In this document: positions 10,956-14,503 of the stretch, piece by piece
How positions within the stretch are numbered: the first letter of the stretch is position 1
How the letters are laid out: the number at the start of each line of letters is the position of its first letter
NCBI RefSeq assembly: GCF_001564455.1
Contig: NZ_CP011391.1
Coordinates: 570,001-602,000 of the forward strand
DNA length: 32,000 nucleotides
Direction of reading: 5' to 3'
DNA from: Faecalibaculum rodentium
Lineage (GTDB): Bacteria; Bacillota_I; Bacilli_A; Erysipelotrichales; Erysipelotrichaceae
Notes under the pieces: model-generated
The model's database searches: none
Told to the model about the DNA's origin: nothing
Seen by the model: only the letters and a program-made list of their open reading frames with translations
Position numbers and translations under genes: made by a program

Positions 10956-11128
10956 CAGTAACTCTCCTTATCGTCCTTACGCGGACTTCACTTTTTCCAC
11001 GGCTGCAGCCCTCAATCCAGTCAACGGCGCGAAGCGTTCAGTTTACCGTTGACCGATCTGAGGTGGGCGGCGATAGAAGACCCTAAGATTCATAAAAACC
11101 ATAGGCTTCATATCAGCCATAAAAAGGC
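10956..11128 (-). promoter_or_regulatory. Hairpin-leader module copy 2 (hairpin about 11001-11072; TTGACC 11049-11054; apical GCGAAGC)
   Basis: It shares a 33-nt identical apical core (11020-11052) with copy 5. The sense leader is GAAAAAGTGAAGTCCGCGTAAGGACGATAAGGAGagttactgATG. Confidence 0.7.
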
Positions 11129-11132
11129 TATA

Positions 11133-11160
11133 ACAAACAAAAGCGGGGTGACCCGCTTTT
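11133..11160 (-). terminator. Rho-independent terminator after the 198-aa ORF
   Basis: aagcggg-gtga-cccgctt stem. Minus-strand tail is ttttgtttgt. Confidence 0.7.
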
Positions 11161-11167
11161 GTAATGG

Positions 11168-11761
11168 TCAGCACTCCTCGAAAAAGAAGAGATTGCCAGA
11201 CTCATTTCTGTATTCCAAACTATCATCAATCTCACTGATGGCATCATCAAGATGTGCCCAAGGGACCGGTTTCCCAAGCCACTTAACCATTGAAAAGTTG
11301 GAGAAGTGAGCTTCATCCCAGTCTTTCTGCCAATCGTAATCGTTTAGCTGGTACACCAATTTCATTTCCTGCCAGCTGTCATAATAGTTATAAAGTTGAT
11401 TGATGCAGGTATGGTTATCTAGATAGATTGTAGAGGTTCCCTCTGCCCACCTCTCAGAGTATGCAATCTGTTCCGCTGAAACCGCCACAAGTCCTTCATT
11501 CCTGTTCTTTGCAATTGGAATATCCTCATCAGGCCACCGCCGTTTTGCAAACTCTTCATCCTCGGGTGTTAATCCTCCACCGTTTTTGGCCAGTCCATAA
11601 ATAATTGCCAAAACGGGGTCAGTTTTTTCTGATGTTTCAATAATGTCAGTCAGCTTTTGCATCTCTCGGTAAGCATCCAGAGTATTCGCAGACCAATGAA
11701 AATAAACATTACAAATTTCAATTCCGCCTTTTTCAATGCTAACAACTAATCTCGCTCCCAT
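11168..11761 (-). CDS. Acidic, Trp-rich hypothetical protein (198 aa)
   Basis: Start set at ATG 11761 (caaggaggaattgaaATG, MGARLVVSIEKGG...). The track ORF start at 11848 would read through the hairpin module. About 36 D/E versus about 17 K/R. Confidence 0.55.
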   Translation of the reverse strand: MGARLVVSIEKGGIEICNVYFHWSANTLDAYREMQKLTDIIETSEKTDPVLAIIYGLAKNGGGLTPEDEEFAKRRWPDEDIPIAKNRNEGLVAVSAEQIAYSERWAEGTSTIYLDNHTCINQLYNYYDSWQEMKLVYQLNDYDWQKDWDEAHFSNFSMVKWLGKPVPWAHLDDAISEIDDSLEYRNESGNLFFFEEC

Positions 11762-11922
11762 TTCAATTCCTCCTTGCCGCTTTGTGCGGTCCTCACTTTT
11801 TCTACAGCCGCAGGAAGCTGCGCCGTCAATGACGCGTTCAGCGTGCACTTTATCATTGACGGTCAGGCAGCAGCCTGCGGCAGATATAAGTCATAAAGGG
11901 CATAGGATCCATAAAAAGCCCG
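11762..11922 (-). promoter_or_regulatory. Hairpin-leader module copy 3 (hairpin 11807-11881; TTGACG 11856-11861; TATAAG 11885-11890)
   Basis: It has the same architecture as copies 1 and 4. The sense leader is GAAAAAGTGAGGACCGCACAAAGCGGCAAGGAGGaattgaaATG. Confidence 0.75.
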
Positions 11923-11940
11923 AGGTGAGTTTGCCCAAAG

Positions 11941-11966
11941 TAAAAAGGCGGGAAGTACTCCGCCTT
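11941..11966 (-). terminator. Rho-independent terminator after the second SSB-like paralog
   Basis: aaggcgg / ccgcctt stem overlaps the stop codon. Minus-strand tail is ttttta. Confidence 0.6.
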
Positions 11967-12296: not shown

Positions 12297-12605
12297 TTAG
12301 CTCACTATATCCATCCGCTCTACGACAAATGCGTATTGAGGACGTTCAGAAGATCCGTCTTTGCTCATTCTGGCAGCTATACGTCCAGTAGCGTTAATGC
12401 ATGTTCCAGGAACGACCATAGATGCTGTATCCGCCAAGCCACGCCATGTTTCCAGAAATAAGAGGTCGCTCTCGTAAATCCCTTGGGCATTTGCGTAGGG
12501 ACGCTTTACAGCTACCTTAACCACACATTGCTTAATTCCGTTAGGTTGGACGATGCATTCAGGCTTCGATGCCACAGTCCCCGATATACAAAATACGTTT
12601 AACAT
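12297..12605 (-). CDS. Tail-less SSB-like OB-fold protein, paralog A (102 aa)
   Basis: It has the same length and pattern as paralog B, and its N-terminal 11 aa are nearly identical to B. Confidence 0.55.
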   Translation of the reverse strand: MLNVFCISGTVASKPECIVQPNGIKQCVVKVAVKRPYANAQGIYESDLLFLETWRGLADTASMVVPGTCINATGRIAARMSKDGSSERPQYAFVVERMDIVS

Positions 12606-12760
12606 TTGATTTCCTCCTGCCGCTTTGTGCGGTCTTCACTTTCTTTCAGACCGCAGGCAGATGCTCCGTCAATGGCGCCATTGGCGTGCACTTTACCATT
12701 GACGGCAAAGCAGTTGCCTGCGGTTGATAGAAATCATGAGAAACATAAAATTCATAAAAT
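12606..12760 (-). promoter_or_regulatory. Hairpin-leader module copy 4 (hairpin 12650-12724; TTGACG 12699-12704)
   Basis: Arm accgcaggcagatgctccgtcaatgg pairs with arm ccattgacggcaaagcagttgcctgcggt. The sense leader is AAGAAAGTGAAGACCGCACAAAGCGGCAGGAGGaaatcaaATG. Confidence 0.75.
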
Positions 12761-12770
12761 CGTGCGTAAT

Positions 12771-12796
12771 TAAAAAGGATGGCATCTCTGCCACCC
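12771..12796 (-). terminator. Rho-independent terminator after the PD-(D/E)XK-like gene
   Basis: ggatggca-tctc-tgccaccc stem. Minus-strand tail is ttttta. Confidence 0.55.
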
Positions 12797-12802
12797 TAAG
12801 GA

Positions 12803-13753
12803 TCACCTGTTTTTCTTTTTCGAATAATCTTCGAATACTTCCGGATGATTCTTCTTGACCCACTCTAGCTGAGACTTGTATTCGTCGCGCTCAGTCATCA
12901 TCTCATCGTATTCGCGCTTCATTTTTGGATCGAGCCACACAACCTGCGCATCATTATATTCATCAAGTCTAGATCTAGTTTGTGCTGTCATTTTTACACC
13001 TTCTCTTTCCAAATAATCAATCTGTCTTTCTGGGTCAACTGAGTCTCGGAAGATATGGCCAAGACATTGGATTGCTTCCTCGGATGATTCTGACCAGTTC
13101 ACGCCAACGGCAGCAATCTTTATTCGGACAAAATCATTCAGAGATTGGCAGAGTTTTTCTCCCGCTCCTCTTTCATTATCATTATAAAGCATTTGTGCCA
13201 CCGTCTTGCAGTCAATGACGAAACTATGGTCCATATGTGGCATGATCCAAATTGCGCAAACTGGCTTAATGTCTTTGTACTCATCATCCTTGAAGCCACT
13301 GACATCGTTTTTCTGCGATTTGAACATTTCCCCAATGTAGTAAAAGATTCTTCCCGCTAACGACCGGGAACCTGGATTTGAGTTCTGCACTTCCACATCT
13401 ACGAAAAGAACATCTGGATCCGCTGTTTCGCATACATAGAGAAGTAAGGCATCAAAACTCATATCACCCTTTTCAATCTCGGTCATCTGATCCCGCAGTT
13501 TATGACAGTGACCTCTGCTGGTACCATTCAAAGACTTTCTGAATTTGGCGGCAATATCTTCCAGGTCTCCTGAAAATATCTCAGGCATCGTTTTTTTCAG
13601 AATTAAGGCACACAGAATCGGGAGAGAAAGAATCTCTTTTGCTGCCTTATCATATCTGGCTCTAGCTTCTTTTGGAGAAATAACAGCTTTTGCTTCAGAA
13701 CTCTTCATTTCAGAATCCCAACAGTTCATTTTTTTTACTTTCCAGTTCGGCAA
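12803..13753 (-). CDS. PD-(D/E)XK-type nuclease-like protein (Rpn / PDDEXK_2 transposase-like architecture)
   Basis: SFDALLLYVC...VLFVDVEVQNSNP...AGRIFYYIGEMFKSQ...YKDIKPVCAIWIM parallels the D...(I/V)E(M/V)Q...R..YY...Y..l.PV..I layout of that family. The start is ambiguous (13753 or 13729). It overlaps the upstream ORF. Confidence 0.5.
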   Translation of the reverse strand: MPNWKVKKMNCWDSEMKSSEAKAVISPKEARARYDKAAKEILSLPILCALILKKTMPEIFSGDLEDIAAKFRKSLNGTSRGHCHKLRDQMTEIEKGDMSFDALLLYVCETADPDVLFVDVEVQNSNPGSRSLAGRIFYYIGEMFKSQKNDVSGFKDDEYKDIKPVCAIWIMPHMDHSFVIDCKTVAQMLYNDNERGAGEKLCQSLNDFVRIKIAAVGVNWSESSEEAIQCLGHIFRDSVDPERQIDYLEREGVKMTAQTRSRLDEYNDAQVVWLDPKMKREYDEMMTERDEYKSQLEWVKKNHPEVFEDYSKKKNR

Positions 13754-14357
13754 GTTTATCTTCCGCTCTTGCGTCTATTTGTTTTAGTCTCTCCTGCAGT
13801 CTGACGAGCATCTTATAATATTCCATTTTGTAACATTCCATTTCGCCTAGGAGCATATTGACTACTTCCTGCTGACCTACGTAAATGCATTTAAGTAAAA
13901 GTTCATTTTTTTTGCTTTCCAGTTCGGCAAGTTTATCTTCCACTCTTGCGTCTATTTGTTTTAGTCTCTCCTGCAGTCTGGCGGGCATCTTACAATATTC
14001 CGTTTTGTAACATTCCATTTCGCCTAGAAGTATATTGACTACTTCCTGCTGACCTACGTAAAAGCATTCAAGCAAATGGATTTCATCTAATCTGGCCATA
14101 TCCGAATCTCTTTTTTCCTGGGTCTCAGAATCATCTTCATAGTTATCGTCTTCATCTTTTAAAGTCGTTTGTCGCTCAAAACAGCGGACGGCATCGTACA
14201 GAGTTGTAAAATATATCCCCCCCATATGCCATATTCTTTTTTCGGGATTATAGTCTTTAGCCACAACATACCTTTCAGGAGCACCTTCAGGACGTTGCAA
14301 TAATGCAATCTTGTAGCCCAGTTTTCCTTCGCGGATTTCAATAATCTCAAATGTCAT
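13710..14357 (-). CDS. Hypothetical protein with small N-terminal domain and duplicated 59-aa coiled-coil/Cys-containing repeat
   Basis: Start set at ATG 14357 (aaggaggaattgattATG, MTFEIIEIREGKLGY...). The C-terminal half is two near-identical 59-aa units. Confidence 0.55.
   Translation of the reverse strand: MTFEIIEIREGKLGYKIALLQRPEGAPERYVVAKDYNPEKRIWHMGGIYFTTLYDAVRCFERQTTLKDEDDNYEDDSETQEKRDSDMARLDEIHLLECFYVGQQEVVNILLGEMECYKTEYCKMPARLQERLKQIDARVEDKLAELESKKNELLLKCIYVGQQEVVNMLLGEMECYKMEYYKMLVRLQERLKQIDARAEDKLAELESKKNELLGF
13723..14076 (-). repeat. Perfect-phase tandem repeat, 2 x 177 bp, inside the 13710-14357 CDS
   Basis: gttcatttttttt(a/g)ctttccagttcggcaagtttatcttcc... recurs at 13723 and 13900. 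The protein units are (L/K)C(F/I)YVGQQEVVN(I/M)LLGEMECYK.EY.KM..RLQERLKQIDAR.EDKLAELESKKNELL. Confidence 0.85.
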
Positions 14358-14503
14358 AATCAATTCCTCCTTACCGTTATTTGTGCGGTCCTCACTTTCT
14401 CCAAGACCTAGCACCCCAGCTGTGTCAACGGCGCGAAGCGTTCAGTTTACCGTTGATACAGTTGGATGCTAGGTAGCATAAAAAACATAAGAACCCTATG
14501 AGG
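14358..14503 (-). promoter_or_regulatory. Hairpin-leader module copy 5 (hairpin 14407-14473; TTGATA 14453-14458; apical GCGAAGC; CATAAA 14477-14482)
   Basis: The 33-nt apical core 14424-14456 is identical to copy 2. The sense leader is GAGAAAGTGAGGACCGCACAAATAACGGTAAGGAGGaattgattATG. Confidence 0.7.

Follow-up and report, generated by a model that had tools for sequence, protein, structure and literature searches.

Single-strand promoters drive the early leading-region genes of the F and IncI1 plasmids, and in the reports that describe them (PMC11541004, PMC12672017) these promoters, Frpo/ssi (classes 1–3), appear as long imperfect hairpins of the transferred strand that lie in the leading region and rebuild −35 and −10 elements. 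For a plasmid to become established, it is now regarded as central that anti-defence genes are expressed early, while the incoming DNA is a single strand. Folded single-stranded DNA is also recognized as a promoter by host RNA polymerase at the single-strand origins (sso) of Gram-positive rolling-circle plasmids and of integrative and conjugative elements in Firmicutes hosts (ssoA/ssoT, ICEBs1 sso1, which corresponds to RF01691, and Tn916 sso916), although the known origins make a short primer and not mRNA (PMC4595007). A third related structure is the DNA mini-hairpin of Hirao and colleagues, GCGNAGC or GCGNNAGC, which contains a sheared G·A pair; the isolated oligonucleotide GCGAAGC melts at 76.5 °C and is nuclease-resistant, the mini-hairpin is a poor binding partner of the single-strand-binding protein (SSB), and such structures sit in single-stranded DNA initiation signals, namely the phage G4, St-1 and alpha3 origins, RSF1010 ssiA and the phage N4 early promoters (PMC13037366). 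Here, we describe five hairpins (copies 1–5) of a mobile element located at the left end of a Firmicutes-type chromosome segment from Faecalibaculum rodentium (NZ_CP011391.1, positions 570,001–602,000 of the forward strand; the whole 32,000-nt stretch analysed is referred to as the window). Each hairpin is probably a promoter that exists only while the + strand is single-stranded, just after conjugative entry into the recipient.

The window hairpins resemble Frpo/ssi in being long and imperfect and in rebuilding −35 and −10 elements, in being present more than once per element, with early genes such as ssb and ardA downstream of each copy, and in an activity that would be expected only before complementary-strand synthesis. 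They may lie in a leading region, on the transferred strand: they adjoin a relaxase gene, a MobC-like gene and a probable transfer origin (oriT), and the transferred strand was judged from gene order. On the other hand, their hosts are Firmicutes, mostly Clostridia, their −35 element is only 3 bp below the apex, and they possess a conserved mini-hairpin apex and a 9-nt one-sided bulge, neither of which was found in text searches of the Frpo/ssi papers (PMC11541004, PMC12672017). By the sequence-homology criterion of PMC11541004 they fall outside that group, since blastn of window positions 9000–14600 against 72,556 PLSDB plasmids, assumed to include the F-type and IncI1 plasmids, had no hit at E 1e-5. 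The exact GCGAAGC is present in copies 2 and 5 and related hairpins in other genomes (hereafter relatives) use GCGNAGC and GCGNNAGC with every N, but here the mini-hairpin would cap a bacterial sigma-type promoter hairpin and not a site for primase or phage RNA polymerase. A literature search of incomplete coverage revealed no account of conjugative elements of Firmicutes with single-stranded DNA promoters and none of promoters of this kind capped by a mini-hairpin, and the promoter sequences in the literature found came from proteobacterial plasmids only (F and IncI1).

Anatomy, folding strand and apex of the hairpins

When the window and 100 shuffles were scanned with a degenerate core pattern, the window gave exactly five matches, each of them on the + strand, and the shuffles gave none, while a covariance model run with filters off retrieved only these five copies, with 51–60 bits against at most 22 bits for the reverse strands. 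The DNA folds of the five copies are alike, consisting of a long imperfect stem, an 8-bp upper stem in which GTCAAYGR pairs with YCRTTGAC, an apical mini-hairpin and nine unpaired nucleotides, TKCANTTWA, on the 3′ side only (Table 1). An earlier, sequence-only reading of this DNA had divided the apices into two families, and both this division (type A in copies 1, 3 and 4, type B in copies 2 and 5) and the apex strings that it quoted were found to be correct; the 33-nt segments that it had singled out in copies 2 and 5 are 100% identical. Its further proposal that the lower stems of these two copies differ and still pair is borne out by copy 5, whereas the pairing of copy 2 is weak, 24 of 200 shuffles folding as well. 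Compensatory changes had also been proposed for the apices of copies 1, 3 and 4; within the window these amount to just one position, G·A in copies 1 and 3 and C–G in copy 4, and it is from the relatives that conservation of the mini-hairpin gains support. The heptamer GCGAAGC itself is found in the window at chance frequency (four occurrences, 4.5 expected), and the argument therefore rests on its position, on the 33-nt identity and on family-wide conservation.

The relatives, an architecture widespread among Clostridia and other Firmicutes, share the long stem, GTCAAYGR, the mini-hairpin, the conserved 9-nt bulge (TTCATTTTA as the family consensus) and YCRTTGAC. A strict pattern requiring CGC...GCGT had no match in genome contigs and a relaxed pattern was needed; with the apex left free, 79 metagenome loci were recovered, and when the pattern was loosened further, species-representative genomes yielded more than 120 loci. 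The exact 33-mer is not a widespread core; in the same metagenome and species-representative genome scans it was found only in the lineage of the element itself, in sister contigs.

In the model-fitted alignment, 94.3% of the cells are paired and the covariation score is 0.317, compared with 0.166 in shuffles, none of 500 of which reached the observed value, and at most 0.114 in slid controls. The fold is that of one strand in particular: 47 G·T wobbles stand against 12 A·C mismatches, and of 51 unique sequences, 46 fold more stably as the model strand than as its complement (mean 5.1 kcal/mol). The + strand of the window is the template of the element genes because every gene between 2.5 and 14.4 kb is co-directional on the − strand, with the relaxase and MobC-like genes directly to the left of the hairpins; this strand asymmetry therefore identifies the folding strand as the template strand of the neighbouring genes. 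A double-strand operator was ruled out, as the lower stems keep pairing but not sequence.

The apex was evaluated in 97 unique hairpins with pairing flanks, a criterion independent of the apex, and in 32 control pattern matches lacking a flanking stem, which represent chance. A C–G-closed G-N(1–3)-A loop on an apical stem of at least 3 bp is present in 68 of the 97 relatives (70%) and in one of the 32 controls, the loop being G-N(1–2)-A in 66 and containing three loop bases in two more. The most frequent loop is GAA (37), followed by GTCA (6), GCA and GTTA (4 each) and GTA, GGA and GCAA (3 each), with GGCA, GCCA, GACA, GAAA, GGTTA and GTTCA also seen. The apical stem comprises 3–6 bp of variable sequence, the G and A of the loop are fixed and the bases between them vary freely; in the subfamily of one genome a constant CGGC/GCCG stem carries the loops GAA, GTCA, GTTA, GCCA, GGCA and GCAA. 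Judged by sequence, the pattern of the relatives corresponds to the published GCGNAGC/GCGNNAGC rule, i.e. two G–C pairs, a sheared G·A pair and one or two loop bases. Copies 2 and 5 fit this rule exactly, copies 1 and 3 (GCG-NNN-AGC) are one base longer and copy 4 does not fit. The sequence-only reading took the apex for a mini-hairpin of DNA type, carried by an element that folds as DNA; this proposal is backed both by the contrast between relatives and controls and by the strand asymmetry. On the opposite strand, or in the gene-sense RNA, the loops would read T/U-N-C, and U-N-C loops are not known to be specially stable. The G-N-A apex rule would tie a well characterized, hyperstable and poorly SSB-binding DNA structure to a biological role.

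Promoter geometry and proposed mechanism

In 95 unique relatives, with positions numbered from the T of TTGAC, the 3′ arm displays TTGAC(a/t), a 17-nt spacer, T (69 of 95) and A (72 of 95). This T is predicted to be paired in 65% and the A in 21%, and the hairpin therefore ends at the −12/−11 boundary. Double-strand/single-strand forks of this kind are bound by the main sigma factor in promoter open complexes. AT-rich relatives contain TTGATT-N16-TATAAT, and in the window copies −10-like hexamers are located 2–3 nt past each stem base. In the 95 relatives as well as in the window copies, the hairpin of a single strand was found to recreate −35 and −10 elements that are oriented correctly for the downstream gene. 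The distance from core to start codon is 61–66 nt in all window copies, the genes lying on the opposite strand behind a strong ribosome-binding site, and the leader reads AAAGTGAGGACCGCACAAAGCGGTAAGGAG..ATG in gene sense. Upstream of the window genes, the − strand yielded no double-strand promoter of the ordinary kind. A terminator scan gave 12 sites against 5.3 expected, and the terminators listed in Table 1 are 50–100 nt to the right of a hairpin. The hairpins themselves were ruled out as intrinsic terminators, as most copies have no T-run after them on either strand.

In the proposed mechanism, the + strand would fold back on itself after entry, the 3′ arm acting as the non-template strand, with the TTGAC −35 element a few base pairs below the apex and the −10-like element at the base of the stem or slightly beyond it, and the 5′ arm with its 5′ flank acting as the template. 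Host RNA polymerase with the main sigma factor would bind this ready-made fork junction and transcribe leftward into the conserved leader and then into the − strand gene; for copy 1, the transcript would be expected to start near 10133–10139, with the RNA 5′ end AAAGUGAGG. Complementary-strand synthesis would abolish the hairpin. The apex, built of two or more G–C pairs, a sheared G·A pair and 1–3 loop bases, would cap the short helix (three base pairs) above the −35 element. The most likely role of this cap would be to nucleate the fold and lock it against SSB and nucleases; nucleation, the role proposed in the sequence-only reading, is plausible, and SSB exclusion or capping of the −35 helix would be equally possible. 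What the data show of the hairpins is their anatomy, their conservation and covariation, the strand bias and the gene context; we infer that RNA polymerase uses the fold and transcribes single-stranded DNA, which strand is transferred and what the cap does.

Several points weigh against this interpretation. Both the transferred strand and the nick site are predicted from gene order only, the + strand being the putative transferred strand by virtue of the co-directional genes beside the relaxase, as in F-like plasmids. The −35 to −10 distance in the window, 18–23 nt, is less canonical than the 17 nt of the relatives, and copies 1, 3 and 4 have a 3-nt bulge in the 3′ arm, which brings the helical distance measured along the template arm near that of the relatives (26 versus 27 nt). 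The complement of the 9-nt bulge, TAAAAT, may be a −10 element used in the double-stranded state, to judge from its sequence. Copy 4 and approximately 30% of the relatives have no G..A loop, and the nearest-neighbour DNA parameters of ViennaRNA assign the mini-hairpins merely −1 to −5 kcal/mol (CGCGAAGCG, −1.0 kcal/mol), so that the case for their special stability rests on published measurements. Finally, in the metagenome-assembled genome E14__bin126 the copies adjoin housekeeping genes, often between convergent genes, which a promoter used only in conjugation does not explain.

We propose more tentatively, at slightly less than even confidence, that the hairpins represent an undescribed class of single-stranded-DNA promoters, widespread in Firmicutes and built to one fixed plan: a mini-hairpin forms the cap, the bulge is one-sided, conserved and 9 nt long, the −35 element lies 3 bp below the junction and the stem ends exactly at −12/−11. 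If this is true, integrative and conjugative elements (ICEs) could use the incoming strand for expressing genes of antirestriction, SSB and regulator proteins and possibly of integrase, the module may double as a two-state switch in which the bulge complement TAAAAT becomes a −10 element once double-stranded, and it has become a dispersed repeat in at least one genome. Gram-positive ICEs carry much of the resistance genes of the gut, and a sequence-defined family in gut Clostridia would help to locate their leading regions and early genes.

Competing explanations and the origin of copy 2

Each of the rival explanations accounts for fewer observations than the single-strand promoter model. The strongest, itself unlikely, is that the hairpins are single-strand origins (sso/ssi) at which RNA polymerase or primase primes the complementary strand, gene expression being secondary or absent; it is partly compatible with the promoter model, since the F-plasmid Frpo does both. 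The layout matches that of the pTA1060/pBAA1-type sso, which consists of GTCAATGG, a loop beginning with TAGCG and then ATTGACAG; this is the Bacillus-plasmid motif of Rfam (RF01691), found upstream of ydcS, where ICEBs1 sso1, bearing the same motif, lies, and it shares GTCAAYGG, loop and TTGAC with the window hairpins (PMC4595007). Mini-hairpin motifs are also present at the primer sites of phages G4, St-1 and alpha3 and of RSF1010 ssiA (PMC13037366), many relatives have a single hairpin copy per locus, and the start region of relatives is followed by a second strong hairpin. Nevertheless, one origin would suffice, and the window holds five copies (six ancestrally), fixed at 61–66 nt from a gene and in terminator-closed units; ICEBs1, by comparison, has one identified copy, sso1, and at least one functionally redundant region. 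The match to RF01691 reaches only 21.1 bits (E 0.43), below the gathering threshold of 31 bits, and is on the opposite strand (− strand, 11007–11056), the other four copies having no match; this is the sole lead from Rfam, no family of which reaches threshold on the window hairpins or in 33 related loci. Tn916 sso916 was rejected as a homologue: it escapes detection by the model, whose best score there, 11.3 bits, falls at another place in the locus, and the strand that folds in this region is the ardA-sense one, opposite, with respect to ardA, to the strand that folds here; the folding strand may be the gene-sense strand in ICEBs1 as well.

A less probable possibility is that the hairpin cores are recombination or mobility sites, like integron attC or IS200/IS605-derived palindromes, acted upon by a recombinase or an HUH-type nuclease. 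This idea draws on the comparison of the window with sister contigs. Two metagenome contigs (L029 and L075/L078), 99–100% identical to the window, carry six modules: L029 163–2040 aligns to window positions 9176–11053 and L029 2816–6070 to 11020–14274, and the same extra module is present in the second contig. Relative to L029, the window is missing 775 bp, which make up exactly one unit from hairpin to hairpin, and the junction falls within the 33/34-nt core that is repeated (11020–11053 versus L029 2007–2849 and L075 1–850). The lost unit comprised the 3′ arm of one hairpin, a gene for a protein of about 200 residues that is a paralogue of 11168–11764 and the 5′ arm of the next hairpin. The loss arose via recombination or slippage inside the identical core; the ancestral element had six modules and three copies of the 33-mer, and copy 2 took its 5′ arm from one parental hairpin and its 3′ arm from another. 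The lower stem of copy 2 is poorly paired because it is such a chimera; the parental hairpins fold at −21.0 and −19.0 kcal/mol, compared with −16.9 kcal/mol for copy 2. All three ancestral 33-mers share the rarer bulge variant TTCAGTTTA, and their identity therefore reflects common descent or gene conversion within the element, besides selection. As the chimera shows, leading-region genes are also gained and lost in modular fashion through identical cores.

Further points in favour of mobility are the presence of members of the family in an Inc18-plasmid-derived resistance region, found on pEOC01 and on Campylobacter plasmids, and the behaviour of the module in E14__bin126. The latter genome contains at least 21 dispersed, intergenic copies of a two-hairpin unit of approximately 150–175 nt with sharp boundaries, consisting of GGAGGGCAAAAGCA..TGCTTTTGCCCTCC and then the promoter-like hairpin; this behaviour, resembling that of miniature inverted-repeat transposable elements (MITE) or repetitive extragenic palindromes (REP), suggests that spreading as a repeat is also open to the module. 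For homologous recombination or replication slippage, however, a perfect direct repeat of 33 nt suffices, making a dedicated recombinase unnecessary, no integron-type integrase was found in the window by Pfam, and mobility leaves unexplained the TTGAC-N17-TA geometry, the stem end at −12/−11 and the fixed start-codon distance.

Least probable of all is an RNA-level role, as a processing site or stabilizer in the gene-sense transcript, or, taken jointly with it, a double-strand promoter whose −10 is the bulge complement and whose mini-hairpin would become a stem-loop at the mRNA 5′ end: the hairpins do sit between genes and the gene-sense bulge reads TAAAAT, TAAAGT or TAAACT, preceded by TGn in copies 1, 3 and 4 (T at stem position 6 gives TGnTAAAnT, an extended −10-like element facing the gene), but in 46 of 51 sequences the fold of the gene-sense strand is the poorer one, the 47 G·T wobbles becoming A·C mismatches and the loops U-N-C, there is no U-tract after the hairpin and no Rfam family match, the consensus has no −35 element 16–18 nt upstream of TAAAAT and most copies have CG, not TG, at the extended −10 position.

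Distribution and genomic context

True members of the family are found mostly in Clostridia (Lachnospiraceae, Oscillospiraceae, Ruminococcaceae, Gemmiger and others), with some in Erysipelotrichaceae, and one hairpin variant is identical across approximately 30 species. Genes downstream in relatives include those for ArdA antirestriction proteins and for small proteins with sigma-70 region 4; a member on a Megamonas plasmid (40.8 bits) is upstream of ardA, followed by ssb, and one contig displays the order hairpins, ardA, two small genes and a tyrosine integrase. This cargo represents the kinds of gene that would be expected to be needed at once in the recipient. The second strong hairpin of relatives was observed between the promoter hairpin and the gene (5′ flank), for example in L006 (1730–1775), L037, L001 and L015; on the folding strand its 5′ arm contains GCGGCAGC or GCGAAAGC, canonical mini-hairpin motifs within a longer stem, like Hairpin I of phage G4.

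The transfer module of the window element contains a relaxase with a MobA/VirD2-like nuclease domain and a MobC/NikA-like protein, and the adjacent non-coding stretch 8950–9430 is, from its sequence, probably the oriT. To the right of it lies a 5-kb block of small − strand genes (from the list of open reading frames, Pfam and PHROGs) encoding a DUF2786/DUF7168 protein, several proteins without a family match and two SSB-like proteins, and closing with a 489-residue protein that resembles replication proteins and primases. The element also encodes a ParA/ParB-like pair and an SSB gene. The remainder of the window contains chromosomal markers.

Table 1. Positions of the hairpins and other features within the window, and loci of the dispersed units in E14__bin126.
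Feature	Position	Strand	Details
Copy 1, type A	10146–10220	+	Fold −30.5 kcal/mol, z −6.9; covariance model 53.3 bits (+ strand) versus 21.7 bits (− strand)
Copy 1 upper stem	10164–10171 and 10192–10199	+	GTCAATGA paired to TCATTGAC
Copy 1 apex	10172–10182	+	CGCGGTTAGCG, CGC-GGTTA-GCG
Copy 1 bulge	10183–10191	+	TGCATTTAA
Copy 1 −35-like element	10195–10200	+	TTGACG
Copy 1 −10-like element	10222–10227	+	TATAAG, just beyond stem base
Copy 2, type B, chimeric	11000–11072	+	Fold −16.9 kcal/mol, z −1.3
Copy 2 33-mer	11020–11052	+	GCGAAGC at 11029–11035
Copy 2 apex	11028–11036	+	CGCGAAGCG, CGC-GAA-GCG
Copy 2 bulge	11037–11045	+	TTCAGTTTA
Copy 2 −35-like element	11049–11054	+	TTGACC
Copy 2 −10-like element	11074–11079	+	TAGAAG
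Copy 3, type A	11807–11881	+	Fold −29.5 kcal/mol, z −5.7; covariance model 52.3 bits
Copy 3 apex	11833–11843	+	CGCGTTCAGCG, CGC-GTTCA-GCG
Copy 3 bulge	11844–11852	+	TGCACTTTA
Copy 3 −35-like element	11856–11861	+	TTGACG
Copy 3 −10-like element	11885–11890	+	TATAAG
Copy 4, type A	12650–12724	+	Fold −33.9 kcal/mol, z −7.8; covariance model 51.1 bits
Copy 4 apex	12676–12686	+	CGCCATTGGCG, CGCC-ATT-GGCG, without G·A pair
Copy 4 bulge	12687–12695	+	TGCACTTTA
Copy 4 −35-like element	12699–12704	+	TTGACG
Copy 4 −10-like element	12728–12733	+	TAGAAA
Copy 5, type B	14406–14474	+	Fold −22.4 kcal/mol, z −3.9; covariance model 59.8 bits (+ strand) versus 10.7 bits (− strand)
Copy 5 33-mer	14424–14456	+	GCGAAGC at 14433–14439
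Copy 5 apex	14432–14440	+	CGCGAAGCG, CGC-GAA-GCG
Copy 5 bulge	14441–14449	+	TTCAGTTTA
Copy 5 −35-like element	14453–14458	+	TTGATA
Copy 5 −10-like element	14477–14482	+	CATAAA
CATAAA/CATRRA motif tails	10228–10258, 11084–11125, 11891–11918, 12734–12762, 14477–14500		
Conserved leader template	10103–10145	+	GCGGWCYTCACTTT and small hairpin CCGC-TTTGT-GCGG, then complement of ribosome-binding site AAGGAG
Equivalent leader blocks	about 10956–10999, 11765–11806, 12606–12649, 14358–14405	+	Repeat families D4, D6 and D7, from alignment
Intrinsic terminator	11137–11162	−	Closes unit upstream of copy 2
Similar intrinsic terminators	11945–11966, 12776–12797		
Terminator-like hairpin	14570–14589	+	8 bp, then TTTTT; apex is the third + strand GCGAAGC (14577–14583)
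Transfer module overall	6897–9430	−	
Relaxase	6897–8471	−	MobA/VirD2-like nuclease domain, Pfam
MobC/NikA-like protein	8476–8934	−	Pfam
TGTGGATACA direct repeats (three)	9116–9125, 9130–9139, 9156–9165		Within putative oriT, upstream of MobC-like gene
DUF2786/DUF7168 protein gene	9440–10102	−	Below copy 1
Two genes	10611–10955, 10302–10580	−	Below copy 2
One gene	11168–11764	−	Below copy 3
Two SSB-like genes	12297–12605, 11965–12273	−	Below copy 4
Two genes	13710–14357, 12803–13753	−	Below copy 5
Class B RNase P RNA	20743–21094		Chromosomal marker
Thiamine pyrophosphate (TPP) riboswitch	23684–23784		Chromosomal marker
PBP1 and RecU genes			Chromosomal part of window; chromosomal markers
Group II intron domains	27068–27239, 28873–28947		Flank open reading frame 27524–28837
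E14__bin126 loci			L083, L091, L109, L113, L115, L120, L124, L130, L136, L140, L144, L159, L160, L171, L174–L176, L183, L184, L190, L202

Some additional features of the element were observed. The 3′ tail of every module contains three or four phased CATAAA/CATRRA motifs approximately 10 nt apart, which are specific to this element and absent from other subfamilies. The terminator-like hairpin at 14570–14589 is inside the last codons of the open reading frame of the 489-residue replication/primase-like protein and could stop rightward transcription from copy 5 in the double-stranded state. At the transfer origin, the TGTGGATACA repeats are candidates for the sites to which an accessory protein binds. 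Sister contig Ga0137310_100351 is missing approximately 1.4 kb corresponding to window positions 7765–9178 (versus L029 1–200), a stretch with the 5′ portion of the relaxase gene, the gene for the MobC-like protein and the greater part of the putative oriT; on the right, the junction of this gap adjoins CCCCTTGCTTG|CG (about 9168–9180) and could be near the nick site. As a marker of the nick site the gap is suggestive and was not used as evidence, the junction consisting of only 1–2 nt of microhomology before CG. Finally, a tandem 177-bp duplication of 93% identity (13720–14073) spans the junction of the open reading frames 12803–13753 and 13710–14357.

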